Positions 17,151 to 52,460 of a DNA stretch of 64,000 nt are shown here, piece by piece. Source of the stretch: Deltaproteobacteria bacterium. GTDB taxonomy: Bacteria > Myxococcota_A > Polyangia > Polyangiales > Houyiibacteriaceae. The stretch's first letter is position 1, and each line of letters begins with the position of its first letter. The notes below the pieces were generated by a model. That model saw only the letters and a program-made list of their open reading frames with translations, had not been told where the DNA came from and ran no database searches. The stretch is from the NCBI GenBank assembly GCA_034670305.1, contig JAXMNT010000030.1:29026-93025 (forward strand), read 5' to 3'. Made by a program: the position numbers and the translations under genes.

Positions 17151-18323
<1,173 letters not shown>

Positions 18324-30777: not shown

Positions 30778-30873
30778 GGCTCCAAGGGTACACCCGGACG
30801 GTTTCCACCGCCCCTTGCCCCTTGCCGGTTGCCGGTGTCCGATGGAGGGCCAGGGTTCGACCGGCACCGGTGG

Positions 30874-30889
30874 CGGCACGGTACGTGCT
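30874..30889 (+). promoter_or_regulatory. Putative sigma54 promoter
   Basis: CGGCACGGTACGTGCT, GG-N10-GC; predicted +1 near 30900, next to ATG 30901. Confidence 0.45.
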
Positions 30890-30900
30890 CCATCGGCGGC

Positions 30901-33512: not shown

Positions 33513-33535
33513 TGCTGTGAAGCACAGCAACCTCC

Positions 33536-36085: not shown

Positions 36086-36086
36086 T

Positions 36087-36102
36087 TGGCACCGAAGCTG
36101 CA
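36087..36102 (+). promoter_or_regulatory. Putative sigma54 promoter
   Basis: TGGCACCGAAGCTGCA, GG-N10-GC; predicted +1 near 36113, next to ATG 36115. Confidence 0.55.
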
Positions 36103-36114
36103 ATGCCATTCGGC

Positions 36115-37545
36115 ATGACACACGCCCACTCGGACCTCCGCCGCATCGGACTCTTGAACGACTTCGTACGCGTTGGACACGCCAACGGCTCGTCGTTCGC
36201 CTCTCAGTTCCTCTACCGTGAACTGGAAGCGCGTGGCCGCGAAGTGACGGTCGTCGGTCCGCGCGACCCACGGGCCGCACCGCACGAGTTGCCGCACCGC
36301 CACCTGCTCCTCGAGTCGATGCCGCTGCGCATGCACCCCGGCGTGCATCTCGCGATGCCCACCTTCGGTGGACTGCGCCGCGTGGCGCGGGCGCGTTTCG
36401 ACCTCGTGCTCGGCCAGACCAGCAACGCGCTGATGGACGTTGGCGTCTGGCTGCGCGCAGCGCACGGCGTACCGCTGGTGATGGTCAACACCGTGCACCT
36501 TCCGAGCGTCTACAACGCGCTTCTCTCCGAACGCCTCGACCGCATCGACGCCGTCCACGCGGCGTTCGCCGAACACTTGGTGCCGTTCGCGGAACGCCAG
36601 ACCGTGGACGCCTACAACCGTGGGGACGGTCTGGTGGTGCTCAGCCCCGGACTCAAACGGTACTGGCGCGAGCGGGGGGTTCGGGTGCCGGTGCACGTGA
36701 TCGGTCGCGCGGTCGAACCGAAGATCTTCGACGCGGTGCCGGGTGCCGATCCGTTCCTGACCCTGTCGCACGTCAGCGACACGTTCCGGTCGAAGGTTCG
36801 AACGAGAGGCTCGAGGTCCCTGGTCGTCTGCCGCCTGGTGCGCGAGAAGGGCATCGCGCGCCTGCTCCGCATCTTCGCGCGGCGCATCGCACCTGCCCGG
36901 CCGGAGGCGACGCTCACCCTGGTGGGCGATGGACCCGACCGGGAGAGCTTCGAGTCTCTGGCGCGCGCACTCGGCATCGCCGAGCGGGTTTGTTTCGCGG
37001 GTGCACGGCCACTGCACGAGATGCCGACCTGGTACGCGCACGCCGATCTCTTCCTCTACACATCGTTGAGCGAGACCTACGGCCAGGTCGTCACCGAAGC
37101 CCTCTGGTGCGGGCTGCCGGTGGTCGCGTTCGCGGATGGCATGGGCGTCAGTGGACAGATCGCGGACGGTGTCGACGGCGCGCTCGTCGAGCCCGGTCCC
37201 GATGCCGACCAGGCGGACCATGCGTTCGCCCATGCGGCGCTGCGGTTGCTCTCCAACCGAGACCTGCGACGCCGCTGGGCGCAGTCGGCCCGAACGAACG
37301 CGCGGAGGCGGGCCGACCCACAGGCATGCGTCTGCCGATACCTGGAGACCTTCGAGGTGGCGCGGCGCCATCGGTTGTCCGGTGACGCGTCGCCCAGCCT
37401 GAGCCGCGAGCTCGGTCTGCTCGGTCGGTGGGCGGGCGTTCACACCCTCGCGGCCACCCTCGGGTTGATGCGCAAACCGGATCGCACGGTGTCGATTCCG
37501 AGCGCCGCCACCTGGGCGCTCGACGGCGCGGAGCAAGCGGCGTGA
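36115..37545 (+). CDS. GT4 family glycosyltransferase (diacylglycerol glycosyltransferase-like)
   Basis: NGSS, CRLVREKG, VGDGP and SETYGQVVTEALWCGLPVV motifs; alternative start ATG 36103. Confidence 0.9.
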   Translation: MTHAHSDLRRIGLLNDFVRVGHANGSSFASQFLYRELEARGREVTVVGPRDPRAAPHELPHRHLLLESMPLRMHPGVHLAMPTFGGLRRVARARFDLVLGQTSNALMDVGVWLRAAHGVPLVMVNTVHLPSVYNALLSERLDRIDAVHAAFAEHLVPFAERQTVDAYNRGDGLVVLSPGLKRYWRERGVRVPVHVIGRAVEPKIFDAVPGADPFLTLSHVSDTFRSKVRTRGSRSLVVCRLVREKGIARLLRIFARRIAPARPEATLTLVGDGPDRESFESLARALGIAERVCFAGARPLHEMPTWYAHADLFLYTSLSETYGQVVTEALWCGLPVVAFADGMGVSGQIADGVDGALVEPGPDADQADHAFAHAALRLLSNRDLRRRWAQSARTNARRRADPQACVCRYLETFEVARRHRLSGDASPSLSRELGLLGRWAGVHTLAATLGLMRKPDRTVSIPSAATWALDGAEQAA

Positions 37546-38735
37546 CCGTCGTGGCCTACTTCGTTCACGGCCGCGGCCGGGGCCACGCGGCGCGGGCGCG
37601 TTCGATCGTGCCGCACCTTCGCGCGAACGGGTTCGACGTCCGCGTCTTCGGTGGTGGGCGCGCGCAAGAGACGCTGGAGACGAGCCCGCGGTTCACCCCG
37701 GTGCGCACCGTGATGCCGGGTTCCCCGGTGCGGGTGGGCCGCGATCTGGCCGCGCGGCTGCCCCGCGACATTCGCCGACTCCGAGAACACGAAGCGCAGA
37801 TCGTGGTGACGGATGGAGACATGCCCTCCGCGCTGGCCGCCCATCTGGTCGGGATCCCCCTGGTCGCGGTTGGGCACGGGTTGCTCTTTCGACACTGCAA
37901 GGTGCCGGCGTCGCTCCCTCGGCTCCCGGTGCTGCGCGAAGCGCTCAATGCCTGGAGTGGATCCATCGGGGCACGGCGCAAGGTGGTCGTTCACTTTGCG
38001 CCGCTGGTGCCCCGAGGGGCACGGATCCGGGTCGCGCGGCCCGATGGGCTGGACGCGCTGACGGAGGGTCCGGTCCAGGACGACGGCTTCGTGCTCGCTT
38101 ACTTCCGCGACAACGACGGCCACGACATTCTCGAGCGCGTGGTGCGCAGCGGCCGACGGGTCCTGTGTTTCGGACAGCCGCAGGGTTTCGGACAGCCGCA
38201 GGGTTTCGGACAGCCGCAGGGTTTGGGACAGCCGCAGGGTTTCGGACAGCAGCAGGGTTTCGGACAGCAGGGTTTCGGACAGCCGCAGGGTTTCGGACAG
38301 CAGCAGGGTTTCGGAGAACCCGTACGGTCACGAGGGGTCGAGTACCACGCGCCGGAGGTCGACGCGTTCCGTCAGGCGCTGCGTCGGTGTTCGGCGGTCG
38401 TGGGGAGCGCGGGCAGCAACTTGATCAGCGAATGCCTGGCCGCACGCAAACCGCTGCTCGCCGTGCACGCGCCGCGCGACGTGGAGCAGCGACTCAACGC
38501 CAACATGGTGGAGGACGCGGGGATCGGCATTGGATGCAACCGCGAGGACGTGACGGATGCGGTCATTGCACAACTGCTGTCGGGCGGCCCCCCACGGACA
38601 GACGCCCGGGATGCGATGATGGACCTCGCCCCAGCCTCCGAAGCGGTCCGGGGCGCGATCGATGCCGCGCTCATCGAAGCGATGCACCGCCGGGCGAGGT
38701 TTCGGGCCATGCTTCCTCTCCGGGGCCGCGGGTGA
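37542..38735 (+). CDS. GT-B glycosyltransferase (MJ1255/GT28-like) with internal FGQPQG repeats
   Basis: HGRGRGHAAR, VTDGD, AGSNLISE and EQRLNA motifs; GTGA overlap with the upstream GT. Confidence 0.85.
   Translation: MTVVAYFVHGRGRGHAARARSIVPHLRANGFDVRVFGGGRAQETLETSPRFTPVRTVMPGSPVRVGRDLAARLPRDIRRLREHEAQIVVTDGDMPSALAAHLVGIPLVAVGHGLLFRHCKVPASLPRLPVLREALNAWSGSIGARRKVVVHFAPLVPRGARIRVARPDGLDALTEGPVQDDGFVLAYFRDNDGHDILERVVRSGRRVLCFGQPQGFGQPQGFGQPQGLGQPQGFGQQQGFGQQGFGQPQGFGQQQGFGEPVRSRGVEYHAPEVDAFRQALRRCSAVVGSAGSNLISECLAARKPLLAVHAPRDVEQRLNANMVEDAGIGIGCNREDVTDAVIAQLLSGGPPRTDARDAMMDLAPASEAVRGAIDAALIEAMHRRARFRAMLPLRGRG
38169..38321 (+). repeat. In-frame 18-bp VNTR encoding (FGQPQG) x about 8
   Basis: TTCGGACAGCCGCAGGGT units with variants. 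Confidence 0.92.
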
Positions 38736-38845
38736 ATGCACTCCGAGTGCGGGAACCGACCTGAGCAGCCGGAGGTGGTGGGGATTGATCGAGGGAACCA
38801 AGCGACAGTTACCAATCGAACCATCTGCTGTTAGATCGGAGATGC

Positions 38846-39481
38846 GTGAAGCTCCTGATCGTCGATGATGTGAAGCCCACTGGGCAGGCGTTTGCGCGAC
38901 TGGCTCGAGGCCTCGGCTGGTCGGTCTCCTGCGTGACTCGGGTCAAGACCGCGCGGCGGGAGCGCGGATTCGATGCGGCAATTGTGGACGTGAACGTGCA
39001 GGGTGAATCGGGCCTCGAACTGCTCGCACACCTGCGGTCCAAAGAGCCACGCGCGGCCTACCTCGTGCTGACGGGGGATCCGCGCGTTTCGATCGCCGCA
39101 CACGCGGCGCAACTCGGCGCGACCTACCTGCGCAAGCCGATCGGCGCACGAACCCTCAGGTTGTGGTTGATGGAAGTCGAGGCCGGCGGTGGGCGCGGCG
39201 TGCAGGAACGCGCGCTCGGTCTCGACGAGATGGAGACGTGGCAGAAACAGCACTTCGAGCAGTTGTTGTTGGAGTTCGGCGCCACGCACGGACTCTCCGA
39301 GCGACACATCGACATCATCCGGCTCACCGCACATGGATTGAACCGCAGCGAGATCGCGGAGAAGCTCGACATCACGTTGGCGACCTACCAGAAACACGTA
39401 GGCCGGTTGCAGAAACGCTCCCACACCAAGCTCCAGCGCATCGTTTCCGAGCTGACCTCGCCTCATCTTCTCGACGAGTGA
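38846..39481 (+). CDS. Response regulator, REC + LuxR-like HTH
   Basis: LLIVDD, AIVDVN, LTG and KP receiver motifs; C-terminal LSERH...GLNRSEIAEKLDIT. Confidence 0.88.
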   Translation: MKLLIVDDVKPTGQAFARLARGLGWSVSCVTRVKTARRERGFDAAIVDVNVQGESGLELLAHLRSKEPRAAYLVLTGDPRVSIAAHAAQLGATYLRKPIGARTLRLWLMEVEAGGGRGVQERALGLDEMETWQKQHFEQLLLEFGATHGLSERHIDIIRLTAHGLNRSEIAEKLDITLATYQKHVGRLQKRSHTKLQRIVSELTSPHLLDE

Positions 39482-39496
39482 CCGACCGGCGGGTGA

Positions 39497-40579
39497 TCAG
39501 CCGCCGGCGGGAAACACGATGCAGATCTCGGTGCCGCGCGGGTGCACCGGAAGGACCTCGATCGAGCCGCCGGCGCCCAACACGATGCGGCGGCACAACG
39601 TGAGCCCGGAGCCGGTGCCCGTCGGGCGCGTGGTGTAGCCGAGCCCGAACACCTCTTCGCGCAACGCCGCCGGAATGCCCGGACCGTCGTCCAACACCCG
39701 TACCGCGACGGATTCGTCGCTCCGCTTGGCCACCACCACCTGAATCCGTGAGCCACCGGCCTCGGCAATCGCGTGGCGGGCGTTGAGGATCAAGTTGACG
39801 AGCACCTGCGCCAGCTCCGATGGGCGCAACGGAACATCGGGGGTGGACGTGGAGCGGACCTTGAGCGCCGCGACCCCGCGCACATGCCGCCCAAGGATCT
39901 GCTCCACCGAATGCGCCACCGAGACCGGATCGCAACGGCCTTTCAGGCGGGAGCGGTCGGCCAAGCTCGTCATGAAACGGGTCAGCTGTTCCACGCCCTC
40001 CATGATGCCGCCCAAGTGTTCGACGACATCCACCTGGGTGGCCTGCGGCGCCAGCTTCTCCTGGAGCGCTTGGGTGTCGAGAAGCAAGAGCTGCAGCACA
40101 TTGCTCAGTTCGTGGCTGATCTCTGCGCGCACTTGATCCATCGCATCGCGCGGGAGGTCTTGGAGCAACCGCGCCTCCAACACGCGCGTCTCGGCGCGCA
40201 GGCGGTGAACCTGGTGCGCCGAATCGATCGCGTCGAAGAGCAGGTCGGCGTCGAACGGTTTGGCGAAGTACCGGTGGACCGCGCCACGGTTGATCGCGTC
40301 CACCGACGTGGTCAGGTCGGCGTAGGCGGTGAGGATCATTCGGAGTGTGTCCGGCTGGGTCTCTCGAAACCGCTCGCACAGCTCCACCCCGGTCATGCCG
40401 GGCATGCGTTGGTCCGCGATCAGTACCGACACGGGCCGCGACTGGGCGATGCGAAGTGCTTCTTCACCGGAGGCGGCTGTCTTGAGGTTGGGCAGCCGCC
40501 CGTCGAAGACGTATCGAAAGGTGGTCCGGTTGGCCTCCTCGTCGTCGACGTACAGCACGATGGCGGGGCGCACGTTCAC
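39497..40579 (-). CDS. Hybrid REC-histidine kinase
   Basis: VDDE, DQRMPG; H-box SHELSN; NLILNA, DDGPG and GSGL boxes. Confidence 0.9.
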   Translation of the reverse strand: MNVRPAIVLYVDDEEANRTTFRYVFDGRLPNLKTAASGEEALRIAQSRPVSVLIADQRMPGMTGVELCERFRETQPDTLRMILTAYADLTTSVDAINRGAVHRYFAKPFDADLLFDAIDSAHQVHRLRAETRVLEARLLQDLPRDAMDQVRAEISHELSNVLQLLLLDTQALQEKLAPQATQVDVVEHLGGIMEGVEQLTRFMTSLADRSRLKGRCDPVSVAHSVEQILGRHVRGVAALKVRSTSTPDVPLRPSELAQVLVNLILNARHAIAEAGGSRIQVVVAKRSDESVAVRVLDDGPGIPAALREEVFGLGYTTRPTGTGSGLTLCRRIVLGAGGSIEVLPVHPRGTEICIVFPAGG

Positions 40580-41706
40580 GTCTCCTCTCCCTCCGAAACG
40601 AGGGGAAGATCTAACACGAACCGCGCGCCACCGCTGGGGGGTGACTCGTACGACAACGCGCCGCCCGCATCCGCCGCCAGTCGGCTCGCCACCGCCAGCC
40701 CCATCCCGGCCCGATCCGGCCGCGTTGTGAAGTGGGGGTCGAAGATCGACGCGATCTCAGCATCGGGCACGCCTGGGCCATCGTCTTGCACCGACACCGT
40801 GGCCCGCCCGTCGCCAGCCTCTACCTGGACGTGGATTTCACCGCCCGTGTCCTGGACCGACTGCAGCGCGTTCATCATCAGCTGCACGACGAGGTGCGAG
40901 ATCTCGGAAGGCTCCATGCGCACCCGAGGCGACGCCCCGAGCGAGACCACGATCTGGGTCTGCCCGCCGGGCCGTGCCTTGATCAGTCCCCGCACCAGGC
41001 GACCGGACGCGTCCACCACCCGCGACAGGTCGACGATGGGGGGCGGCGGCCGACCCGGCAGGCCCGCCGCCAGACGCGACTGGAACTCGACGAGTCTCGA
41101 CACACAGAGGGTGAGCTCGCCAGCGCTCGACCGAAGTTCGTCGTGGAGCTGGGGCAGCCTTTCTGGACTGGCCGAGGTCAGGTCGGAGAGGTGTTTGCTC
41201 CAGGTGTCCAGCGTCTCCAAGTGCTGCGCCAGTTCGGAGTTTGCCTCCCGCGTCATCGTGTGGACCGGAACGTCCGCGCTGCTTCGCAAGAACGTGTGTT
41301 GCAGGTCCCGCACGGTGCGGGTCGCGTGCACGAAGTCGATCGCCTGCGAGAGCGCGGACTCCAGGTACTCGTTGCGGATCGGTTTGACGAGGTACCGCAT
41401 CACGCGCCCGCGGTTGACCGCGTCGATCGCCATGTTCACATCCGCGTAGGCCGTGAAGAGGATGCGGACCATGTCGGGGTGGGTCGCGAACACGCGCTCG
41501 CACAACTCGACGCCGGTCATGCCGGGCATCTTGTGGTCGGCCAGCAGCACCGCGTAGTCCGAGGCTTCGATGCGCTCGAGCGCCTCCTCGGCGGACTGGG
41601 CGATGTCCACGCGGAACCCACCCTCCAGCGCATACTGGATGGCGACGAGGTTGCCGTGGTCGTCGTCCACGTAGAGCACCGGATAGTTGGTCCGATCGAC
41701 GGTCAC
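40576..41706 (-). CDS. Hybrid REC-HATPase protein lacking the canonical H-box His
   Basis: Intact REC (DHKMPG); the H-box position reads TREANSE; N, G1, F and G2 boxes present. Confidence 0.85.
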   Translation of the reverse strand: MTVDRTNYPVLYVDDDHGNLVAIQYALEGGFRVDIAQSAEEALERIEASDYAVLLADHKMPGMTGVELCERVFATHPDMVRILFTAYADVNMAIDAVNRGRVMRYLVKPIRNEYLESALSQAIDFVHATRTVRDLQHTFLRSSADVPVHTMTREANSELAQHLETLDTWSKHLSDLTSASPERLPQLHDELRSSAGELTLCVSRLVEFQSRLAAGLPGRPPPPIVDLSRVVDASGRLVRGLIKARPGGQTQIVVSLGASPRVRMEPSEISHLVVQLMMNALQSVQDTGGEIHVQVEAGDGRATVSVQDDGPGVPDAEIASIFDPHFTTRPDRAGMGLAVASRLAADAGGALSYESPPSGGARFVLDLPLVSEGEET

Positions 41707-44453
41707 GCGCTGACCTCCAAGCTGGTCTCGAGTCGAAGAGGGAAGTTGAGTGTCACACAGGCGCCGCCCAGGCGCTCGGATGTACCCAGCACGACCGATC
41801 CTCCGTGGGCGCGCATCACGTCATCGGCCACGCTCAGACCGAGGCCGGTTCCTTCACCGGAGACACGACTCGTCACGAACGGCTCCAGCGCTCGGTCAAC
41901 GATGTCGTCGTCGAACCCGGGACCGGAGTCCTCGACGGTGATGACGTACCGACCCGCCTCCGCGGTGCCACTGACGAAGATGCGACCACGCGCCCCGACC
42001 GCCCGGGCTGCGTTGTCGATGAGGTTGAGGAACACATGGTTCAAATCTCCGGGCCGACCGGAGACCCGGGTCTCCAGATCCACTTCGGTCTCCACCGTGA
42101 TGTCGTCGGGCAAGCGGGCGCTGAGCAACCGCACGGCGGCCATCAAGCCCTGACCGGGCACGAGCTCGCCTTCTTCCTCTCGGTCCACCCGCGAGAGATC
42201 GAGCAAGTCGAGGGTGATGCGTTCGATCCGGTGCGCACACTCGACGAACAACCCGAGCATCTCCTCGGTGCGAGGGTCCACTTTGCCCTCGAGTTTCTTC
42301 CGCACCGCAGGCAAGCCACTGACCAAAGCGGTCAGTGGGTTGCGCACATGGTGGGCGACCGATGCGGCGAGCACGCCGAGCGTCGCCAGGCGCTCCTGGT
42401 GGGCGAGCCTGGCGCCGAGCCGGCGGACCCTCATGTGGACGTCCAAACGCGCGAGCAGCTCACGCCCGTGGAACGGTTTGACCAAGTAGTCGTCGGCCCC
42501 GGCGTCGAACCCTTCGAGCACATGGTGGGGCTCCCCGCGCGCCGTCACGAGCACGATGGGCAGATCGCTCGTCTTCGGTGTGTTGCGCAGACGGCCGGTC
42601 AGCTCGAGGCCGGAGATCCCCGGCAGGGACACGTCGGTCACCACCGCCGCGGGACGCAGGACCGTCGCTGCCGCAAGGGCGCTCTCCGCGTCTCCGAACG
42701 CTTGCACTTGGTAGCGGGCGCTGAGCACCTCCACGATGAAGCGCGCCAGATCGGGGTGGTCTTCCACCACCAGGACCAATGGCGCATGCACGTCGCCGAC
42801 GCGTGCACCGTCCACGCCGCGGGTCGGGTGAGAGACTTCGGTGCGAAGCACGGGCACGGGGCTGCGGCGCGCGACGACGCGGGGCAACTGAATCCGGAAG
42901 ACCGACCCCTTGTCTTGCTGGCTCTCCACCGACGCCGACCCGCCGTGGAGGCGTGCTGCTTCCTTGACGATCGCGAGGCCGAGGCCGGTGCCACTGCGCG
43001 ACCGTTCGTCCGAGGCGCGTTCGAACCGCTCGAACACGCGTTCGAGATCCTCGGCCGGAATGCCAGGCCCATCGTCGCTGACCTCGAAGGTGATGTCTCC
43101 GCCGGTGTCGTGGGCTCGAACGGAGATTCTTCCGCGGGCGTAGCGCAGCGCGTTGGCGAGCAGGTTCGTCAGCGCATTGGACATCCACTCTGCGTCGAGT
43201 TCGAGCACGTGGGGCGCGTCGACCTCGGTCTCCAACTCCAGTCCGCGTTCGGTGGCCGCCAGACGGAACGGGTCCACGCATGCGTCCACCAACTGGGTCA
43301 CATCGATCGGGGACGTCGAGAGGGTGGCCTTGCCGGCGTCGACCTTCGAGACGTCGAGGAGCTGATCGATCAACCGGTGCAAACGCCGCGCGTTCGCGTC
43401 GAGGGAGACCACCTCCGGGGAGGACTCGAGCGCCTCCGCCAGTTTTTTGGTGGCGGCGAGGATCAACGTCAGCGGGGTGCGGAGTTCGTGGGACACGTTC
43501 GCGAAGAAGTTCGTCTTCGCTTCGCTCAACCCGCGCAGCTCCTCCAACGTCTGCGCAAGCTGCCCGGTGGTGCGGTGGAGTTCGGCGGTGCGCTCTTCCA
43601 CCCGCCGCTCCACGGCACTCTTCGCGTCTTGAAGTTGCTCGAACCGCTCTTCGAGCTGGGTCACGCTCTGGGTCAGCGCCTCGTTGGTCTCGAGGACCGT
43701 GCGGGCCTGGGCGGCGACATCCCACTTCAGCTCCAGTTGCCGAAAGAAGCTCCAGATGCCCACCGCGCCGAGCAGCCCGGCGCCACCAACCACCAGCGCT
43801 GGAGAAGCGAATGCGCTCGAGGCCTGCGACGCGAGGACGGCCGCGGTCGCACCACCGGCCAGGAACCCGAGTCGCGACCGCCAGCGGGGAATGCGTGCGG
43901 TGAACTCGACTTCGTAGATGCACGCGTCGGCCCCCTCGTGCAGACACGTTGGGTGCCGGACCGTGGCCATGGGCAGATCGAAGAGCGTGGGGAGCGCGGC
44001 GATGTTCTCCAATCGGCCGAGGCAGACCAGCGGTTCGGTTTCGCGCGGCGCGCCCTCGGCGGTGACGTACCGAAGCACCACCCGACCGGCACCCCGTTCG
44101 AGCACCGAGAGTTCGCCCACCTTATTGAACCGAGCGAGCGCCTTCGTCATTTGTTCGTACGCGCTGGCCGGATGCCCGAAGGTTCGAAGCAGACCGCGCA
44201 GTGGCCCCATGTAGGTCGCGTCGTAGGCGAGCCGCGCCGTGCGCCGAACGAAGAGCGGATCCCCGCTCGCGGTCACGAGTGCGTGGACCAGGTCCTGGCA
44301 GACCTCGAGGGAGATCCACGCGCTTCGATCACTGACGAGTGCGCGGTCGACGGTTGCGGCGCGGAGCAGCCCGTCCACCTGCCCTTCTCCGAGCAGACGA
44401 TCCGCCTCGTCCACGAGTGGCGCCAGGAATGCCGCATGCACTTCCGGTTTCAC
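41703..44453 (-). CDS. Membrane hybrid sensor kinase: V4R/HNOX-like sensor-2TM-HK-REC-HK
   Basis: CLHEGADACIYE V4R-like motif, 2 TM, SHELRTPL, REC (TDVSLPG), second HK HHVRNPL; start GTG 44453. Confidence 0.88.
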   Translation of the reverse strand: MKPEVHAAFLAPLVDEADRLLGEGQVDGLLRAATVDRALVSDRSAWISLEVCQDLVHALVTASGDPLFVRRTARLAYDATYMGPLRGLLRTFGHPASAYEQMTKALARFNKVGELSVLERGAGRVVLRYVTAEGAPRETEPLVCLGRLENIAALPTLFDLPMATVRHPTCLHEGADACIYEVEFTARIPRWRSRLGFLAGGATAAVLASQASSAFASPALVVGGAGLLGAVGIWSFFRQLELKWDVAAQARTVLETNEALTQSVTQLEERFEQLQDAKSAVERRVEERTAELHRTTGQLAQTLEELRGLSEAKTNFFANVSHELRTPLTLILAATKKLAEALESSPEVVSLDANARRLHRLIDQLLDVSKVDAGKATLSTSPIDVTQLVDACVDPFRLAATERGLELETEVDAPHVLELDAEWMSNALTNLLANALRYARGRISVRAHDTGGDITFEVSDDGPGIPAEDLERVFERFERASDERSRSGTGLGLAIVKEAARLHGGSASVESQQDKGSVFRIQLPRVVARRSPVPVLRTEVSHPTRGVDGARVGDVHAPLVLVVEDHPDLARFIVEVLSARYQVQAFGDAESALAAATVLRPAAVVTDVSLPGISGLELTGRLRNTPKTSDLPIVLVTARGEPHHVLEGFDAGADDYLVKPFHGRELLARLDVHMRVRRLGARLAHQERLATLGVLAASVAHHVRNPLTALVSGLPAVRKKLEGKVDPRTEEMLGLFVECAHRIERITLDLLDLSRVDREEEGELVPGQGLMAAVRLLSARLPDDITVETEVDLETRVSGRPGDLNHVFLNLIDNAARAVGARGRIFVSGTAEAGRYVITVEDSGPGFDDDIVDRALEPFVTSRVSGEGTGLGLSVADDVMRAHGGSVVLGTSERLGGACVTLNFPLRLETSLEVSA

Positions 44454-45202
44454 CGCACGCGCCCCCACGCGATGAACAGCGGCGCGGAGGCGAAGGACCG
44501 ACTCGAAGCCAACCACTGGTCGATCTCGCGCGACCCTCGTCGGACGAACTCTGGGTCCGGATCGGCGCGGTAGTGGGTGTCGAGCAACATCCGGCCGAAC
44601 GTATCGCGCCCCAGCCGAAAACTCGTGACCATCGTGCATTGCACTTCGACCGACTCGAGGCCGGCCTCGCTCATCCGCTGCGACAAGTGCCGACCGATGT
44701 CCGGCATCGCACCGCGGGCGCGCGTTCGTTCCATCCAGCGCCGTCGGCCTTCCGCGACGGTGGGCAACACCGGATCCGACACGAACCCGGACACGTCGGT
44801 GTCGACGACCAGCACCAGTCCGCCGGGCGCGACGACACGGGACATCTCACGCAACGCCGCGGTCGGGTCCGGGACGTGTTGCAACACGAGTCGGGCGTAG
44901 GACGCGTCGAACGCACCGGATGGGAACGGCAGCTGGTGCACGCTGGCCCTCGCCCGTTGACCCGACATGCGCGAGAGGGCGTTCGCGTCGAGGTCGACCC
45001 CGACCACCTCCGGTCCAAACGAACGCAGTACCTGGGCCGGGGCGCCGGTGCCCGCGCCAACATCGAGGATGCGCCGCGCGCTCCACAGCCCGGCCCGGCT
45101 GTAGTGCGGCACCTCGATGCGTCGGATGAGCGCCGCTTGCGCTTCGAGCCGACGCGCCTCTGCATCCGCTGCCGCGTACACCGCCAAGGAGTAGCCACTC
45201 AC
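44450..45202 (-). CDS. Class I SAM-dependent methyltransferase
   Basis: ILDVGAGTG, LPFPSGAFD, LQHVPDP and PGG motifs. Confidence 0.9.
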   Translation of the reverse strand: MSGYSLAVYAAADAEARRLEAQAALIRRIEVPHYSRAGLWSARRILDVGAGTGAPAQVLRSFGPEVVGVDLDANALSRMSGQRARASVHQLPFPSGAFDASYARLVLQHVPDPTAALREMSRVVAPGGLVLVVDTDVSGFVSDPVLPTVAEGRRRWMERTRARGAMPDIGRHLSQRMSEAGLESVEVQCTMVTSFRLGRDTFGRMLLDTHYRADPDPEFVRRGSREIDQWLASSRSFASAPLFIAWGRVR

Positions 45203-47412
45203 GCGGACACCTTGGACACCTCGCGCGGCGCGCCGTAAGCCTCGGTCAAGAACGACGAGTACCGCCACAAGCCGGCCCGCGAGAGTACGTAGGCTGTGGC
45301 GTCGACCACGTGCTCGAGTCCCGCTTGCTGGAGCGACGAGGGGGCGACGCACGCCGGCGCGAGTACGAGCCGATTCGGCTCATGGGACTCGAGAGGAAGC
45401 TGCATGAGGGCTTGTTGGATCGTCGCGCCGAAGGGTTCTGCGTTCTCGTAGTGCAGAGGCAGCACCCACGTGGCGTTGAGCAGTCCAGGCAGACACAGCC
45501 CGGGGCTGCACCGTTCGGTGAGCAGGGCGACCCGCGGCCTCGGCCGATCTTCGACGAGCATGGTTCGCTGGCGCACCAGTCCGTGCTCGGCAAACGCGCC
45601 TTCGATGTCGGTCGCCAAGAGTCCTTGCGCGGTCATCGCCAAGCCGCGGGCGGCGAGGTGCCCCAGATCCCGCGACGCGGCGCGCGCGATGAGTGAGATG
45701 TCCGCCGCCCGGGCTTCGCGCATGGGGAGGGGCAGACTTGTGGTCGGCTCCACCTGACGCAGTCGGCGAACCATCCACACCCGGAGCTCCGCACACGCCA
45801 TCGCTTCCGCGGTCCCGGTGAGTTCTTGAAAACGCTGGTGAAGGCCGGCCATCTTCGCGTTGCCGGACTTCGTGAAGAACACCATGTGTCGACAGGTCGG
45901 ACGCGGAAGCACGTCCTCGAGGAACGCGAGCAACAGGGTGCCGGGCGTGCAGCCACCGCGGCCGGGGATCGCGGCGAGGTGCTCTCCAAGCCAGGTGTCG
46001 TTCCAAGCGCGCAACGCGGTGACACTGGCCACCACTTCGTCGTTCTCGACCCGGTGCAGGGTCCGGCAGATGCCAGAGTCGGGCGCATGCGCGCGCCGCC
46101 AGTTCGCCTCGGCGTCGCCCGACCGCAACTGGTCCTCCATGTACGGCATCAGCAGACCCATGCGTCGGTACAATGTCATCTGAGGTTCAAACGCCGCTCC
46201 GTCGTGCGGCGTGAGTTCGGGACGACGCAACCGCGCGACGAGATCGTAGAGGTCCCGCGAACGTTGATCGGCTGGCAGCAAGAACTGCGCATGACACTCG
46301 ATCCGTGTCGAGGTTGGCTCGAGCCCCCGAACCTCGAGGGTCCCGAGTGGAATCGTGCTGTGCGCGGTCAGCAGGTCGGCGTCTGCAAGCTTCAGTTCGT
46401 GCCAGAGGATGTTCCGCTCGCCTGCCGAGAAGCGCAGCCCGCCCACGCTCACATCCAGCACCCGCTCCTGCACCCGCGTCCCCGTGATCGGATTGGTGAA
46501 CGCAATCTGCATTGGTTCGCCCATCGGGATCTCGGTGCGCTCGTCGGTTCGCCGTTGGCAACGACGCAGCACGAGCGGGAACGACGTGCGGTCGACCGAG
46601 ACGCGTCGCACCATGGCCTCGTACGCCATGCCGAAGAGCCGGAACCGAAACCGCCACGGGTCCGCGGGCACCTCGCCCGAGAACTGGAGTCGATCGCGAG
46701 ACACCCGTTCGATGCGATGTCCGGAGTCGTCGAGGGGCACCGCGAGCAGCCCCGCGAGTTCGAGCAGACGCCGAACCTGGTCGGGGTCGTCGACGACGTC
46801 GTAGTCGATGGGCTCCGGCAGCGGCGCCACATCGAAACGGGCGCGTACCAAGAAGCTCGAGCCGCCGTCCGAACGCACGAACGGGTGCGAGCCCACGACG
46901 GCTGCGGGAGCCCGTCGGAGCACACCTCGATCGCCCACCACGATCACGGTGCCGAGCGACGTACCTGGTGGGAACCCGCGTGAAGAATGGAAGGAGCACA
47001 TGTCGTTGGAGACGTCTCGGATCGGCAGCGCCCGGAGATCACCGACGCCTCGACTGGCAACCAGCACCAGACCCTCCGCCGCGATCCTGCGACGGTCGAG
47101 CTGGTCTTCCATGCGCGCGCCCTCGAGCGCGACGGCGAGGGTCCGTGGGTCGATCGCCCGGGCGTGCCGCGCGACGAGTGTCCAGTGACCGATGCCCGGG
47201 TCGGTGGAGTGGACGTAGAGCGGTTCGGAGGAAGCCTCCGGACACAGCGCGCGTGCCGCGACGGGCGCGAGGGTCAGCCAGGACTGGCCATCGATGGTTT
47301 CGACGTGGGATGCGGACCCCTCGCACAACGGTCCACCTCCCCTGCGCACGAGCAGCGGAGCCAAGCGATGGGCCGCATGACGAGCCCGCATCTCAATCGA
47401 TGCTGTGGTCAC
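45199..47412 (-). CDS. PilZ-domain protein with C-terminal GNAT/FeeM-like acyltransferase-type domain
   Basis: QRRTDER + DVSVGG c-di-GMP motifs; an earlier degenerate PilZ (DRRR...DVSND); C-terminal alpha/beta domain LYRRMGLL...VVASVTALRAW...EHLAA (fold inferred). Confidence 0.7.
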   Translation of the reverse strand: MTTASIEMRARHAAHRLAPLLVRRGGGPLCEGSASHVETIDGQSWLTLAPVAARALCPEASSEPLYVHSTDPGIGHWTLVARHARAIDPRTLAVALEGARMEDQLDRRRIAAEGLVLVASRGVGDLRALPIRDVSNDMCSFHSSRGFPPGTSLGTVIVVGDRGVLRRAPAAVVGSHPFVRSDGGSSFLVRARFDVAPLPEPIDYDVVDDPDQVRRLLELAGLLAVPLDDSGHRIERVSRDRLQFSGEVPADPWRFRFRLFGMAYEAMVRRVSVDRTSFPLVLRRCQRRTDERTEIPMGEPMQIAFTNPITGTRVQERVLDVSVGGLRFSAGERNILWHELKLADADLLTAHSTIPLGTLEVRGLEPTSTRIECHAQFLLPADQRSRDLYDLVARLRRPELTPHDGAAFEPQMTLYRRMGLLMPYMEDQLRSGDAEANWRRAHAPDSGICRTLHRVENDEVVASVTALRAWNDTWLGEHLAAIPGRGGCTPGTLLLAFLEDVLPRPTCRHMVFFTKSGNAKMAGLHQRFQELTGTAEAMACAELRVWMVRRLRQVEPTTSLPLPMREARAADISLIARAASRDLGHLAARGLAMTAQGLLATDIEGAFAEHGLVRQRTMLVEDRPRPRVALLTERCSPGLCLPGLLNATWVLPLHYENAEPFGATIQQALMQLPLESHEPNRLVLAPACVAPSSLQQAGLEHVVDATAYVLSRAGLWRYSSFLTEAYGAPREVSKVSA

Positions 47413-47684
47413 GCCGAAAGTCTACCAGGGGGGATTGGGGCAAATCGTCGGGGTAGACTTTGTTCTACCGATCCATGGTCAGAAGTTGGCACATCCCCAT
47501 CCTGGGTACTCGCCGAGGCGTTCGGGAAATCCCAATGTTCACTTGGGGTTACAGGAAAACGATGGGCTGCTGTCAGAGACCTCGCGGAGAGTGCCTCCGG
47601 AGGTGTTCCAGCGGCCCGAGGGGCGAAGTGGCTCAAGCATCCGTAATCTTTGTCATTTTTGGCACTGAACGCTAGTCTTTTTCG

Positions 47685-49652
47685 GTGATGGGTTCGGAAG
47701 TCATCCGGCTGCTCTTGGTCGACGACGACAGCGTGGACGCCGATCTGATCCAGGAACATCTCGCCGATGGCCCGACTCCCATCGAGGTACAACACGTCCG
47801 GCGCGAAGCGGAGTACCGGACCGCGCTCTCGGCGCACGGCCCCTTCGACATCGTGGTGGCGGACTACCAACTGGGCGGCTGGAACGCGATGGATGCGTTC
47901 CGCATCATGCGCAGCCTCGGGTTGAATCTTCCGTTCGTGCTGGTTTCGGGGGAGCTGCAACGTGCGGTCGGCGCGACGATGAGTGCGGGGCTCGACGCGT
48001 TCGTCTCGAAGGACGAGATGGCGCAACTCGGTGCCGTGCTGACCCAGGTGCTCGAACGACGACGCGGGCACAAGCGGGTGGAGCTGGTCGAGCTCGCCCT
48101 CAAAGCAGAGGTGGAGCGTCATGGGCAACTGCTCGAGACGCTCCCCTTCTGTGTGTGGGAGCTCGACTTGGCGCCCGCGCTTCAGCGGCTCGCCACGGAC
48201 GAAGCCGATGTGTACGACGCCGCGGAGCAGGTGAAGATCGTGGGCTGCTCGAGACTTGCCAAGGGCCTCGGGTTGCAACCGGAACAGCTCTCGGAAGTGT
48301 TCACCGCGCTGCTGACCGCGTGGACCGAACGGTCGCCGACGAACCGACGGCTGTGTGCGAAGTTCGCATGGCGCGACTCGGGTGCGCCGGACTCGGTGCG
48401 CTCGTACCTGGCGCACGCGGAGCTCCCCCCCAAAGAAGAGACAAGACGGCCCGTGGCACTCGGGTTGATCGACATCACGAACCAGGAGCGCCTGGAATCC
48501 CAGCTGCTGGTCGCACAACGGCGCGACTCGATCGGTCAACTGGTTTCGGGCATCGCCCACGACTTCAACAACTTGCTGATGGTGCTCGGAACCTACGCGG
48601 AGTTGGTCCACGACGAGTTGCCACCTGGGCCGGTGGCCGAAGACGTGGAGGTGATGCAAGACACCGTGCAGCGGGCGACCGCGCTCGTGCGGCACCTGCT
48701 GGGATTCGGGCGCAGGCGGGGCGCAGTGCTGGAGGTCGTCTCCCTGGGAGAGATCGTTCAGAGCGCGCAGCGCATGCTGCGTCGGGTGCTCTCGGAAGAC
48801 ATCGAGATGTTCGTCGAAGTCGGCGAGGTGGTTCCCGTCACCGTGGATCGCACCCAACTCGAACAGGTGTTGATCAACTTGGTCATGAACGCGCGCGACG
48901 CGATGCCGCACGGCGGCGAACTCCACATCCGACTTCTCACCCAGACGATCGAGTCCGAAACCCACGAAGGCATGGCGTTCGAGCCGGGTCGATACGCGGT
49001 GCTCGAAGTGCGTGACACCGGGAGCGGGTTCGAGGATTCCGTCGGTGCTCAGATCTTCGAACCGTTCTTCACCACCAAAGACGAACGCGGCACGGGGCTC
49101 GGCCTCGCGGTGGTCATGGGCATCGTCGAAGAGAGTGGTGGACGCATCATCGCTGAGTCCGTGCCCGGCGAAGGGACCATGTTTCGGGTGCTCCTTCCGG
49201 AAGCGGTCGTGCAAACCGCCAGCGACCAGAAGCCCACCCGCCAATCCGGGACGCGTGTGAGGGCGAGGATCTTGCTCGTGGAGGACAACGATCAAGTGCG
49301 CTTCTCGCTCGGGAGACTTCTGGAGAAACACGGCCATCGGGTGGTGGCGACCCACCACCCAGACGAGGCCATCAAGCTCATCGACGAGGGCTCCTTCAAT
49401 GTGCTCGTCTCCGACATGGTGATGCAGGGCATGAACGGATTGGATCTCGCTCAGCGACTGCGTCTGGTCCATCCGCAGCTGGCGGTCGTGCTCTTGTCTG
49501 GGTACACAGATCACGACGCGCTCCCCGAGGTATTGCAGGCAGAGGACATCGTCTTCCTTTCCAAGCCCACCGACGGTGGACAACTGTCGGATGCGGTTCA
49601 ACGAGCGCTCGATCAACGTCCCGCCGACGCCGAGCAAGTCTCGGGCACCTAG
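47685..49652 (+). CDS. Hybrid REC-HK-REC sensor kinase (CckA-like)
   Basis: N-terminal REC; GIAHDFNNLL, NARDAM, FFTTK and GTGLGL; C-terminal REC. Confidence 0.93.
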   Translation: MMGSEVIRLLLVDDDSVDADLIQEHLADGPTPIEVQHVRREAEYRTALSAHGPFDIVVADYQLGGWNAMDAFRIMRSLGLNLPFVLVSGELQRAVGATMSAGLDAFVSKDEMAQLGAVLTQVLERRRGHKRVELVELALKAEVERHGQLLETLPFCVWELDLAPALQRLATDEADVYDAAEQVKIVGCSRLAKGLGLQPEQLSEVFTALLTAWTERSPTNRRLCAKFAWRDSGAPDSVRSYLAHAELPPKEETRRPVALGLIDITNQERLESQLLVAQRRDSIGQLVSGIAHDFNNLLMVLGTYAELVHDELPPGPVAEDVEVMQDTVQRATALVRHLLGFGRRRGAVLEVVSLGEIVQSAQRMLRRVLSEDIEMFVEVGEVVPVTVDRTQLEQVLINLVMNARDAMPHGGELHIRLLTQTIESETHEGMAFEPGRYAVLEVRDTGSGFEDSVGAQIFEPFFTTKDERGTGLGLAVVMGIVEESGGRIIAESVPGEGTMFRVLLPEAVVQTASDQKPTRQSGTRVRARILLVEDNDQVRFSLGRLLEKHGHRVVATHHPDEAIKLIDEGSFNVLVSDMVMQGMNGLDLAQRLRLVHPQLAVVLLSGYTDHDALPEVLQAEDIVFLSKPTDGGQLSDAVQRALDQRPADAEQVSGT

Positions 49653-49697
49653 CGTCTGCAGGCACCGAGCACGTCTCAGCACGCCTGGGGGCTTCGC

Positions 49698-50990
49698 CTA
49701 GGTGCCGGTCTCGCTCGAAGGCTCACTCCAGCCAGCCGGAAACTTGGGTCGGGTGCCGGTCACGGCGCCGGGGGACGTGGTCGTGGACCCAGTCGGAGCA
49801 GCCGTGGGCACAGCCGTGGCCACGACGCGAAGTTCGAACGGGTTGGTCAGGTCCCGGGAAGGACGCGCGATGTGGTAGCCCTGGACGACGTTGCAACCGA
49901 GCACACCGAGCGCAAGACACTCGTGTTCGTTCTCCACACCCTCGGAGATGATGGCCACATCGCTTTCGCGGGCAACGGCCGCAAGTGCGGAGACGAGGCG
50001 CTGTTTGATCGGGGTCGCATGCACATCTCGAACGAGCGTCATGTCCAACTTGATGACGTCGGGTTCGAGTTCCGCGATGCGGTTGAGTCCGGCGTACCCG
50101 GCACCGACATCGTCGACCGCCACGCGGAACCCGATGCGACGCAGACGCTTGAGTTGTTGCCGGGTCGCTGCGTCGAACGGCGTCTGCTCGCTGACTTCCA
50201 GCACCACGCGCTCGGCGTGGCGCCCAAGCGGTGAGTTGCTCGCGTAGAGGGTCGGGTCGTCGAAATCCTCTGGGGCGAGGTTGAGGTACAGGTCGGTGCC
50301 GGGCATCGCCTGATCCAGGAACCGACCAAGTGCGATGGAGCGAATGCGTCGACCGAGTTCGATCGTGCCACCGACTTTGCGCGCGAGTTCGAAGAGCTTG
50401 AGGGGATTGCGCAGCCCTTCGAGCGAACATCGAACCAGCGCTTCGTAGCCGAGGACCGCCTTTCGGTCCCAGTCGACGATCGGTTGAAAGTGCACGTCGA
50501 CCGCGTCCATCGCTTCGAAGAACAGTCCTTCGGTCGAGGCTCGTTCGTTCGCACCGTTGAGCTCCCGCTCGTGCTGCTCTTTGGCGGCGAGGCGGTGGGA
50601 CCGGGAGCGTGCGGTCTGGGCCACGGCCTTCGCCACGACGGCGACCAGCATCTCTTTGCCAACCGGCTTGAGCAGGAAACCGCTTGCGCCCGAGTTGACC
50701 GCCTGCATCACAGTGGCGACATCGGCGCCTCCGGTCACGAGCACGACCGCCAAGTCTTCCTCGAGCTCCTTCACCGTGTCGAGCAGCTCCAGACCACTAC
50801 CGCCCGGCATCGAGATGTCGGAGACAATCGCCACGATGGGCTCCGCGGTCAGGATCTCGATCGCCCCCTCCAGGCTGCGCGCAATGCGCGGGGTCCAGCC
50901 CACGTCCGACAGGACGCGGGCGATGGAGCGGGCAGTCTGTGCGTCGTCGTCGACGATCAGCACACGGGCTTGGGGGAGGTGGTCGTTCAT
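49698..50990 (-). CDS. REC-EAL c-di-GMP phosphodiesterase
   Basis: REC plus FQPI, YEALVR, LNL, LEVSE, DDVGAGY, IKLD, EGVE and QGY motifs. Confidence 0.92.
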   Translation of the reverse strand: MNDHLPQARVLIVDDDAQTARSIARVLSDVGWTPRIARSLEGAIEILTAEPIVAIVSDISMPGGSGLELLDTVKELEEDLAVVLVTGGADVATVMQAVNSGASGFLLKPVGKEMLVAVVAKAVAQTARSRSHRLAAKEQHERELNGANERASTEGLFFEAMDAVDVHFQPIVDWDRKAVLGYEALVRCSLEGLRNPLKLFELARKVGGTIELGRRIRSIALGRFLDQAMPGTDLYLNLAPEDFDDPTLYASNSPLGRHAERVVLEVSEQTPFDAATRQQLKRLRRIGFRVAVDDVGAGYAGLNRIAELEPDVIKLDMTLVRDVHATPIKQRLVSALAAVARESDVAIISEGVENEHECLALGVLGCNVVQGYHIARPSRDLTNPFELRVVATAVPTAAPTGSTTTSPGAVTGTRPKFPAGWSEPSSETGT

Positions 50991-51028
50991 TCTCGGAATC
51001 TCGTGGTGGCGGAATTGTCCCGAGTGAC

Positions 51029-51044
51029 TGCACTTCTCATGCCA
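51029..51044 (-). promoter_or_regulatory. Putative sigma54 promoter of the REC-EAL gene
   Basis: TGGCATGAGAAGTGCA, GG-N10-GC, about 40 nt upstream of ATG 50990. Confidence 0.6.
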
Positions 51045-51128
51045 CTTAGAATCGTGGGGAATCGGGACGGCGAGTGGTCGATTTGACCACTCGTGCCCGG
51101 TTTCGCCCCCGATCTGGCCCGCTCCTGC

Positions 51129-52460
51129 TCAGTCCACCCCGAAGCGTTTGCACTTCTTGTAGAAGAACGAGCGTTCGACCCCCAGCGCACGCGCCGCGGC
51201 GGCCTTGGAACCGTGGGTGCGCACCGCCGCCCGAATGACCTCCTGCTCGTACCCTTCGAGGTGTTCGGCCAGGGTCCGCCCACCCGAGTAGCCGACCACC
51301 GAATCGCCGAGCGCACATCCGACGGCGGATGCGTCGATGGCGGCGCCATCCGCCAAGATCACCAGTCGCTCGATGAGGTTCTGGAGTTCCCGGACGTTTC
51401 CCGGATACGGGTACCTCCGCAGGCGCTCCAGCGCATCGTGGGTCAGGTGGCAGGTCGGCCGTCGGTGCCGGCGGGCAGACACGTCGAGGAACGCGCGGGC
51501 CAGGACCCCGACGTCCTCGAGGCGGGCGCGAAGCGGAGGTGCTTCGAGACCCACCACGTGGAGCCGGTAATAGAGGTCTTCGCGGAAGGTCCCCTGCGCC
51601 ATCATCGACTTGAGGTCGCGGTGCGTCGCGGCGATCACCCGCACATCCGCGGTCTGGGCACGGGTGCCGCCCACCCGTACGAACGTGCCCTCCTGCAGCA
51701 CACGCAAGAGCTTCGGCTGCATGCTGGCCGGCATGTCCCCGATCTCGTCGAGGAAGAGGGTGCCTCCATGCGCCAACTCGAACCGCCCGCGCCGCGCCCG
51801 ATGGGCACCGGTGAACGCGCCGCGCTCGTGGCCGAAGAGTTCACTCTCGACGAGGTTCTCGGGAACTGCGCTGCAGTTGAGTGTCACGAAAGGCCCAGTG
51901 GCACGGGTCGACGCGTGGTGGAGTGCGCGGGCCACGAGACCCTTGCCGGTGCCATGTTCGCCTGTGATCATCGCCCGCCCGTCGGACCGGCCCACCGTCG
52001 CGATCAGCTCCCGCAGCGCGACCATCGACGCGCTCTCGCCGAGCAACTGCGGCGGCTCCGGAAGACTGCGCAGCTCCCGGTTCTCCACACGCAGCTGGTC
52101 CAGTTCGAGACACCGACGCAGCGACAGCTCCAGTCGTGCCGTCTGCACCGGCTTCTCGATGTAGTCGGTTGCGCCGAGTTGTACGGCGCGCACCGCATCG
52201 GGGATCGCAGCCGCCCCCGACATGACGAGCGATGGCACGCTCAGGGACTCCGCGCGGAGTTTCTCCAAGAGCTGCAGGCCGTTCATGCGCGGCATCGAGA
52301 CGTCGGTCAGGAGCAGATCGACCCCGCCCTGGCGGAGCCGATCCACCGCAGCGTGTCCGTCGGTTGCAACCTCGACGGTGTAGCCGAGCTTCTCGAGCAC
52401 CCGGCCCAACGAAGTTCGGATCGTGGGTTCGTCATCGACCAACAGTACGGTGGCAGCCAC
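51129..52460 (-). CDS. NtrC-family sigma54 enhancer-binding response regulator
   Basis: REC, GEHGTGK, GAFTGA, FLDEIG, GNVREL and Fis-type HTH. Confidence 0.95.
   Translation of the reverse strand: MAATVLLVDDEPTIRTSLGRVLEKLGYTVEVATDGHAAVDRLRQGGVDLLLTDVSMPRMNGLQLLEKLRAESLSVPSLVMSGAAAIPDAVRAVQLGATDYIEKPVQTARLELSLRRCLELDQLRVENRELRSLPEPPQLLGESASMVALRELIATVGRSDGRAMITGEHGTGKGLVARALHHASTRATGPFVTLNCSAVPENLVESELFGHERGAFTGAHRARRGRFELAHGGTLFLDEIGDMPASMQPKLLRVLQEGTFVRVGGTRAQTADVRVIAATHRDLKSMMAQGTFREDLYYRLHVVGLEAPPLRARLEDVGVLARAFLDVSARRHRRPTCHLTHDALERLRRYPYPGNVRELQNLIERLVILADGAAIDASAVGCALGDSVVGYSGGRTLAEHLEGYEQEVIRAAVRTHGSKAAAARALGVERSFFYKKCKRFGVD

Follow-up and report, generated by a model that had tools for sequence, protein, structure and literature searches.

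In Myxococcus xanthus, the cyclic di-GMP (c-di-GMP) effector PixB (MXAN_2604) is built from two PilZ domains and, after them, a GNAT domain; binding of c-di-GMP was demonstrated in vitro (PMC8316039). According to the accessible part of that report, its acetyltransferase domain is required for the control of motility, all of its domains as well as c-di-GMP binding are required for development, and pixB and the two genes downstream of it may constitute an operon (PMC8316039). The product of MXAN_2606 is termed an "uncharacterized orphan hybrid HK-RR-HK" in the available text of a preprint, and insertions in this gene led to poor aggregation but to spore enrichment in pools (bioRxiv 10.64898/2026.08.28.747804). 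Few c-di-GMP effectors are linked to a clear phenotype in the motility and development of myxobacteria; PixB is one of them, although what it acts on and through which path is not known. Here, we analyzed a stretch of 64,000 nucleotides (the window; positions 29,026 to 93,025 of contig JAXMNT010000030.1, assembly GCA_034670305.1) from a Deltaproteobacteria bacterium of the Myxococcota_A, order Polyangiales. It contains a five-gene operon encoding a PilZ-GNAT protein, a methyltransferase, a hybrid sensor kinase, and two further kinases with receiver (REC) domains.

Judged by architecture, PixB is the closest known protein to the product of the first gene, which adds a new and distant member to the proteins with a PixB-like layout. 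The two proteins share the two-PilZ-plus-GNAT layout, and MXAN_2606, two genes from PixB, is described as an HK-RR-HK protein, with the same core as the hybrid kinase of the window; both comparisons are by description and not by sequence. The arginines mutated in PixB, R121 and R331, fall within the ranges of the PilZ matches in distant members of the window protein's family (∼119–222 and ∼320–450). As far as the PixB text goes, RxxxR is retained in both of its PilZ domains but the Ser of the second motif is missing from each, whereas in the window protein the first PilZ domain is degenerate and the second has both motifs complete. The layouts of the two loci probably match, and the window module is probably a relative of the pixB locus.

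A further point of comparison is HfsK of Caulobacter crescentus, an acyltransferase-family protein that is not known to have a PilZ domain and acts on the holdfast polysaccharide; we know of no kinase paired with it. In the accessible portion of its description, HfsK is a c-di-GMP effector (PMC5362036). For the locus described here, comparison with related genomes leads us to propose that c-di-GMP gates the synthesis of a small acylated and tailored molecule that is sensed by the neighboring kinase, a reading to which we assign a probability of about 0.45. The comparative evidence gives a testable proposal for the substrate of PixB-type enzymes, a small molecule, and for its receptor, the neighboring kinase.

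A Conserved Enzyme-Kinase Pair with Exchangeable Tailoring Genes

The operon is formed by five minus-strand open reading frames (ORFs) within positions 39497–47412, all of which carry domains. Gene 1 (45199–47412; P0001, 737 residues from the GTG at 47412) encodes a PilZ-tandem-GNAT protein, recognized from sub-threshold Pfam matches, a structural model, and Foldseek. Gene 2 (44450–45202; P0007, 250 residues) encodes a class I S-adenosylmethionine (SAM)-dependent methyltransferase (Pfam Methyltransf_11, E = 3e-21), and gene 3 (41703–44453; P0006, 916 residues) a hybrid sensor kinase defined by Pfam, H-boxes, and hydropathy. Two proteins with Pfam REC and HATPase domains follow: a REC-histidine-kinase-like protein of 376 residues (gene 4, 40576–41706) and a REC-histidine kinase of 360 residues whose translation shows the H-box ISHELSN (gene 5, 39497–40579). 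On the minus strand, the sequence at each of the four gene junctions is GTGA: 45199–45202, 44450–44453, 41703–41706, and 40576–40579. A preliminary description of the window, made from its sequence, had reported these five genes and four overlaps together with the domains of the operon and flanking genes, and all of this was borne out. Gene 1 probably starts at the ATG at 47391 rather than at the GTG at 47412, because a 98%-identical database protein (P0003) begins there; its orthologues align from residues 7–13.

Species-representative genomes were scanned with a 12-sequence alignment. Fifteen stretches matched the pattern, six of which (L001–L006) encode a relative of the enzyme. A kinase orthologue lies downstream of the enzyme gene on the same strand in all six loci, so that the co-occurrence implied by the preliminary description is indeed found elsewhere. 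Identity of the kinases reaches 44–55% over the full length in L001–L005 and 37% over 398 residues in L006, and the orthologues include the sensor domain (32–51% identity). The enzyme and kinase trees are in broad agreement, sharing two main clades and the pair formed by L003 and L005. Because the same pairing recurs in six of six loci and the trees broadly agree, it goes beyond chance.

The genes between enzyme and kinase change from locus to locus. In the window, L001, and L002, this place is held by an orthologous methyltransferase gene (41–45% identity to gene 2 in the latter two). L003 has a ThiF gene, a split PALP gene, a methyltransferase gene, and a tryptophan-halogenase-type gene; L004 a halogenase, a cytochrome P450, an O-methyltransferase, and a cupin/JmjC-like gene, with a desaturase gene after the kinase; L005 a flavin adenine dinucleotide (FAD) halogenase-like gene and a desaturase gene; and L006 a desaturase gene and a 252-residue ORF without Pfam family. 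With the exception of this last ORF, small-molecule enzymes are encoded between enzyme and kinase at every locus. For the head group, the halogenases, the P450, the phenol-type O-methyltransferase, and the ThiF/PALP genes hint at an aromatic or amino-acid-derived nature, and the desaturases may hint at an acyl chain. Two of the L003 genes are interrupted: PALP, at 12849–13944, is split over two frames, and the halogenase aligns over 14646–16211 with an ORF spanning only 15339–16289. Both may reflect a frameshift or an assembly error of the metagenome-assembled genome (MAG).

A methyltransferase is also found joined to the enzyme itself. Among 41 distant long relatives of gene 1, there are two, P0084 and P0137, with a methyltransferase domain fused at the C-terminus. 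That of P0084, which comes from a MAG of the Myxococcaceae, is 34.6% identical to the product of gene 2 over 246 residues (E = 1.7e-27). The tailoring role that had been proposed for gene 2 is supported by these fusions and by the other tailoring enzymes that occur in its place. A methyltransferase of the PhcB type, as the preliminary description suggested by analogy, was not recovered: gene 2 reaches no NCBIfam cut-off, its best score being 67.9 bits against the 155 needed for the DVU_1556 family, and can be assigned only to the generic class I.

Beyond the first three genes, conservation is partial. Relatives of gene 4 (37–46% identity) adjoin the module in L001, L002, L003, and L005, and no REC-kinase relative flanks it in L004; relatives of gene 5 are present in L001 and L002 (42–44% identity).

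Several other genes were observed around these loci. In three of the six, a set encoding an ATP-binding cassette (ABC) ATPase, an ABC-2 permease, a GldG-like ABC_transp_aux/DUF7088 protein, and a DUF4340 protein lies directly upstream of the PilZ-GNAT gene in the same direction (L002, 1789–6902; L004, 5149–9834; L006, 4530–9549), with 39–79% identity between loci. The window, L001, L003, and L005 lack this set, which may encode an exporter or reflect no more than old synteny. After the kinase gene of L004, at 20590–22256, the fatty-acid-desaturase-family gene is followed by a gene for a second PF12625 protein (E = 1e-31) that runs off the end of the locus. In L005, a stand-alone PilZ protein of 140 residues (E = 8e-14) is encoded on the minus strand just after the kinase gene, at 17878–18300.

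PilZ Modules and Tandem GNAT of the Enzyme

An exhaustive protein search retrieved 162 representatives of the gene 1 family at E ≤ 1e-3, including 57 at E ≤ 1e-30. Word-indexed searches were shallow, with three matches for the enzyme, three for the kinase sensor region, and five for the sensor profile among longer proteins. Family members are mostly 700–820 residues long; some consist of the C-terminal ∼340 residues alone. The 20 members that we looked up are named only "hypothetical protein" or, in two fused forms, methyltransferase; none of these 20 comes from a named Myxococcus strain. All column counts below refer to an alignment (A1) of 45 close full-length members, the 41 distant long members having been scanned separately. 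The AlphaFold model of gene 1 built on A1 has a predicted local distance difference test (pLDDT) value of 89.9 and a predicted template modeling score (pTM) of 0.89, and is without membrane segment.

The second PilZ domain (residues 286–377; 46282–46557, minus strand) carries both motifs of the family, RxxxR (R288, R292) and DxSxxG (D320, S322, G325). These columns are well kept in A1: R288 in 44/45, R292 in 43/45, D320 in 39/45 with Asn in three more, S322 in 44/45, and G325 in 43/45. Among the N-terminal modules, which are beta-rich, the first PilZ-like barrel (residues ∼105–200) is degenerate (R107 in 36/45, S135 in 14/45, G138 in 11/45). Pfam PF07238 is matched in 20 of the close members at E ≤ 0.01 (best 4e-10) and in 36 of the distant ones at E ≤ 0.001, at residues ∼119–222, ∼320–450, or both. 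For the PilZ part, Foldseek comparison of the model with the PDB returned MrkH, PP4397, and YcgR (E from 1e-8 to 2e-7, template modeling [TM] score by target 0.62–0.73), which share the two-barrel module and the RxxxR and DxSxxG motifs with gene 1. While these three receptors work through the binding of DNA or of partners, the module of gene 1 is fused to an enzyme. By sequence, the PDB yielded weak PilZ matches only (Alg44, E = 0.011–0.24; YcgR and MrkH, E of about 0.1), and NCBIfam, searched with the gene 1 protein and with pieces of it, gave either no family or insignificant matches. From its motifs and the model, PilZ 2 is a predicted c-di-GMP receptor that may gate the attached enzyme.

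The C-terminal ∼330 residues adopt, in the model, a double GNAT fold with halves at residues ∼400–560 and ∼565–726 (45235–46215, minus strand). The GNAT assignment, presented as the weakest link of the preliminary description, thus withstands comparison of structures, and the domain is moreover a tandem one. Its matches in the PDB include 2wpw (E = 3e-8), 9en3 (E = 9e-8), 6wqb, 7q3a, N-myristoyltransferases, Eis, and 2c27. Proteins with tandem GNATs among these neighbors are CBG, of clavulanic acid biosynthesis, HisAT/NAT16, VipF, MAB_4324, the N-myristoyltransferases, Eis, and MshD; one of the PDB entries of HisAT/NAT16 contains N-myristoyl-histidine. CBG (2wpw), HisAT/NAT16 (9en3 and 9emp), and the mycothiol synthase MshD (2c27) are N-acyltransferases of small molecules. 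These three, the best non-PilZ matches among the 50 Foldseek matches listed (E from 3e-8 to 1e-5), hold two GNAT halves in ∼300–330 residues as gene 1 does, but are only 13–16% identical to it, reach TM scores by target of only 0.39–0.51, and have no PilZ modules. Similarly, the Atlas neighbors of a stand-alone homologue (P0038) are GNAT proteins of 325–339 residues (TM 0.59–0.64). Four residues, W474, R614, R616, and P652, are invariant in A1. The likeness to the acyl-signal synthases LuxI and FeeM that had been proposed for this domain was not recovered: neither is among the 50 Foldseek matches listed, and neither Pfam nor NCBIfam gave such a match.

The Kinase Sensor Domain

Gene 3 encodes, in this order, an H-NOX/V4R-like domain, a hydrophobic stretch (residues ∼196–238), a coiled coil, HisKA (H322), HATPase, REC, a second H-box (H701–702), and a further HATPase domain. 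The N-terminal domain (residues 1–190; 43884–44453, minus strand) is a putative ligand-binding domain. Its V4R/H-NOX likeness, already perceived from the sequence, is upheld by a match of the first 200 residues to PF12625 above the cut-off (31.5 bits against 27.6, E = 2.4e-7), by a confident model (pLDDT 89.4, built with seven sequences), and by Foldseek. The latter aligns it with the H-NOX proteins of Shewanella, Kordia, and Nostoc (TM 0.61–0.72), with the N-terminal domain of VirS bound to a synthetic lead compound (8rcw, E = 3.5e-4), and, more weakly, with the phenol sensors MopR, DmpR, and PoxR (E from 2e-3 to 3e-3). No Pfam V4R match was obtained for the domain, its sequence search of the PDB returned nothing meaningful, and the sensor-domain features of P0174 gave only Atlas leads below 0.9, to DUF2378 and V4R clusters.

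Heme binding by H-NOX domains involves a proximal His and a YxSxR motif. A heme-binding H-NOX was considered and rejected, as the seven aligned orthologues have neither a His in the helix at residues 95–109 nor YxSxR. All seven keep three cysteines, C144, C170, and C178. Their spacing (26/8) is that of C151, C177, and C185, listed as zinc ligands of DmpR in the available part of its description (PMC7264223); the fourth ligand differs. From its sequence and model, the domain is probably a non-heme, zinc-stabilized domain for a small ligand. While its modeled fold resembles those of H-NOX, of the VirS-type PF12625 proteins, and, more weakly, of DmpR, MopR, and PoxR, it is placed at the N-terminus of a membrane-anchored hybrid kinase instead of standing alone or preceding an AAA+ or AraC output. 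Its location ahead of the hydrophobic stretch, together with the Cys-rich site, makes it probably cytoplasmic, and the signal would therefore be intracellular or membrane-permeant.

A Proposed Gated Synthase with Its Own Receptor, and Rival Explanations

In the proposed mechanism, binding of c-di-GMP to PilZ 2 would switch on the acyltransferase. The tandem GNAT would then acylate a small molecule, possibly joining an acyl chain to an amino-acid-like head group, and the SAM methyltransferase would tailor the product, a task that may fall to a halogenase, a P450, an O-methyltransferase, or a desaturase elsewhere. The resulting molecule, hydrophobic in character, would be the ligand of the H-NOX/V4R-like domain, with its putative zinc site, in the HK-REC-HK kinase, and this kinase may feed a phosphorelay with the two REC-kinases. 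A constant enzyme, exchangeable tailoring enzymes, and a constant kinase with a ligand domain favor a biosynthetic cassette with its own receptor. Likewise, the pairing of the enzyme with one kinase, while tailoring genes are swapped or fused, suggests that the substrate is a small molecule and the neighboring kinase its receptor. The preliminary description had envisaged a quorum-sensing-like circuit; its observations are confirmed, and this interpretation is partly supported. The likeness to PhcB/PhcS of Ralstonia, LuxI/LuxR, and FeeM is one of logic only (a synthase, an enzyme that tailors or methylates, and a kinase as receptor), and the predicted cytoplasmic location of the sensor domain contrasts with the periplasmic or transmembrane receptor of these analogies. 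If the proposal is true, c-di-GMP would act in a new mode, by gating the synthesis of a second chemical signal, and non-heme H-NOX-like domains would gain a new class of ligand.

Several points weigh against this proposal. Both domain assignments of gene 1 score below the Pfam gathering thresholds, at 18–19.9 against 22.5 bits for PilZ PF07238 (E = 0.0037) and at 17–18.7 against 20.7 bits for GNAT PF00583 (residues 435–528, E = 0.0075), and Pfam detects GNAT, weakly, in only one of the 45 close and two of the 41 distant members. The acyl-CoA pyrophosphate loop of GNATs reads Q/RxxGxG/A. In gene 1, this canonical loop was not found by eye; the loop after the strand at residues 473–481 reads PGRGGCTPG, and only G491 is kept there (40/45). 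Residue 477, which belongs to the near-invariant WxxQH of the first GNAT half and is Q in 42 of 45 sequences, is E in the window protein. The module has no known product, substrate, or ligand, and neither an exporter nor a DNA-binding regulator is conserved with it in the six loci. These loci are the only ones available for comparison, all are from Myxococcota MAGs, and the L006 contig ends inside the kinase gene. It is also conceivable that the kinase has a regulatory role and responds to an unrelated cue. Finally, the likeness to PixB is drawn from descriptions of the protein and its locus, and the text available for PixB leaves unstated in which direction the two downstream genes lie. The PixB authors, in that same text, left the substrate open as not determinable from sequence, GNAT substrates including proteins (PMC8316039).

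In one alternative, the PilZ-GNAT protein would acetylate, in response to c-di-GMP, a protein such as a motility regulator or one of the kinases or receivers encoded nearby, and the neighboring enzymes would not form one chemical pathway. GNATs do include protein acetylases, the Foldseek neighbors VipF, N-myristoyltransferases, and Eis act on proteins, and the pTM of 0.89 indicates a compact regulatory packing of the PilZ modules on the GNAT. The accessible PixB text, moreover, likens the mechanism of that protein to a cyclic AMP-activated mycobacterial protein acetyltransferase (PMC8316039). Left unexplained are the intervening halogenase, P450, O-methyltransferase, desaturase, and ThiF/PALP genes of the other loci, the fusion to a small-molecule-type methyltransferase in two of 41 relatives, and the retention of an H-NOX/V4R-like domain by the kinase, and we consider protein acetylation unlikely. 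In another alternative, the enzymes would form a small cluster making a secondary metabolite or a modified lipid, and the kinase would sense an unrelated cue (redox, a gas, a xenobiotic, or membrane state) and not the product, regulating only the cluster or other targets. Biosynthetic clusters often carry their own regulators, relatives of the sensor bind ligands as diverse as heme/nitric oxide (H-NOX), phenols (DmpR, MopR, PoxR), and a lead compound (VirS), and L004 has its second PF12625 protein beside a desaturase. This separation of sensing from synthesis nevertheless seems rather improbable, since the kinase alone stays linked to the enzyme as the tailoring genes change, with trees that share their main clades, no DNA-binding response regulator is conserved (the LuxR-type gene is found in none of the six loci), and heme ligands are absent from the sensor domain in all seven sequences.

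Remodeling of envelope lipids is also conceivable: acyltransferase, methyltransferase, and desaturases, controlled by c-di-GMP, would act on a membrane lipid whose state the membrane-anchored kinase would monitor. Consistent with this are the membrane fatty-acid-desaturase-family genes of L004, L005, and L006, the hydrophobic membrane stretch of the kinase, and the ABC-2/GldG-like transporter set directly upstream in L002, L004, and L006. But tryptophan-halogenase-type enzymes, a P450, a phenol-type O-methyltransferase, and ThiF/PALP suggest an aromatic or amino-acid-derived moiety and not a bulk lipid, and the absence of a membrane segment from the enzyme model also argues against lipid remodeling, which we regard as very unlikely. 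At the far end, the genes might be neighbors by descent, without functional link. All related loci belong to one phylum, where shared ancestry could keep gene order; yet the proteins are only 29–55% identical between loci, and the pairing persists while the intervening genes are swapped. Together with the methyltransferase fusion and the four translationally coupled overlaps, this makes a merely inherited order scarcely credible.

Returning to the gated synthase with a kinase receptor, a wider form of this proposal would extend to PixB-type enzymes in general. They might be c-di-GMP-gated synthases of small, lineage-tailored acyl signals (methylated, halogenated, or desaturated), each read by a cognate H-NOX/V4R-like hybrid kinase, with a putative zinc site, from the same operon. 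Such a synthase-receptor pair, previously unrecognized, would convert the c-di-GMP level into a phosphorelay, possibly between cells, and would explain the effects of PixB on motility and development. This generalization is a possibility that we hold as doubtful. The accessible text on PixB proposes neither a small-molecule signal nor a kinase receptor (PMC8316039). Literature searches with the tags of the pixB locus returned only that paper and the preprint on MXAN_2606 (bioRxiv 10.64898/2026.08.28.747804), and searches combining PilZ, GNAT, kinase, and gene clusters found no description of a synthase-plus-receptor circuit. The earlier suggestion that the system may be undescribed is thus half right: it applies, within the literature found, to this reading, but not to the PilZ-PilZ-GNAT architecture, already studied genetically in PixB (PMC8316039).

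Flanking Genes and Other Features of the Window

Three signaling genes surround the operon. A REC-GerE/LuxR response regulator gene (38846–39481, plus strand, Pfam) converges on it. On the other side are a divergent gene for a REC-HisKA-HATPase-REC kinase (47685–49652, plus strand, Pfam) and a gene for a REC-EAL protein of the c-di-GMP phosphodiesterase type (49698–50990, minus strand; Pfam EAL, E = 2e-45). The domains reported for these genes by the preliminary description are correct, but the genes are not conserved with the module. In the related loci, the REC-LuxR gene has no tblastn match at E ≤ 1e-5 (0/6), the REC-HisKA-HATPase-REC gene has domain-level matches of 24–32% identity only, and the REC-EAL gene has receiver-domain matches only, with no orthologue of either. 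By these sequence comparisons, the three genes are neighbors and not conserved parts of the module.

The divergent intergenic region (47413–47684) is, by its position alone in a reading of the sequence, the presumed promoter region of the operon. It contains no sigma-70-like site and no Rfam match at E ≤ 1, and no riboswitch or other Rfam family was detected at this threshold over 38500–51200. Terminator-like sites are not above chance (4 against 3.9 expected), and no sigma-70-like promoter was identified. The window has a G+C content of 0.65–0.72 and, because it is GC-rich, many shadow ORFs. One of them, a 757-residue minus-strand ORF at 47409–49682 whose GTGA overlap with gene 1 made it a candidate sixth gene of the operon, was rejected as an antisense shadow of the REC-HK-REC gene without Pfam match.

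Elsewhere in the window, a second PilZ protein of 644 residues is encoded at 54450–56384 on the minus strand (Pfam PilZ, E = 2e-9, at residues 51–131), the remainder of which has no Pfam family. Beside the operon, at 30421–38735, lies a polysaccharide-type set of genes, with glycosyltransferases, a Polysacc_synt flippase-like gene, and an MMPL-family ORF. Gene calls are ambiguous there, the overlapping ORFs 33536–36085 and 34441–37545 each having Pfam matches. A class III adenylate/guanylate cyclase gene (4150–5364, minus strand) adjoins a gene for a 1066-residue protein packed with ankyrin repeats (5455–8655, plus strand), and an archease gene is paired with an RtcB RNA-ligase gene at 27703–29791 on the plus strand.

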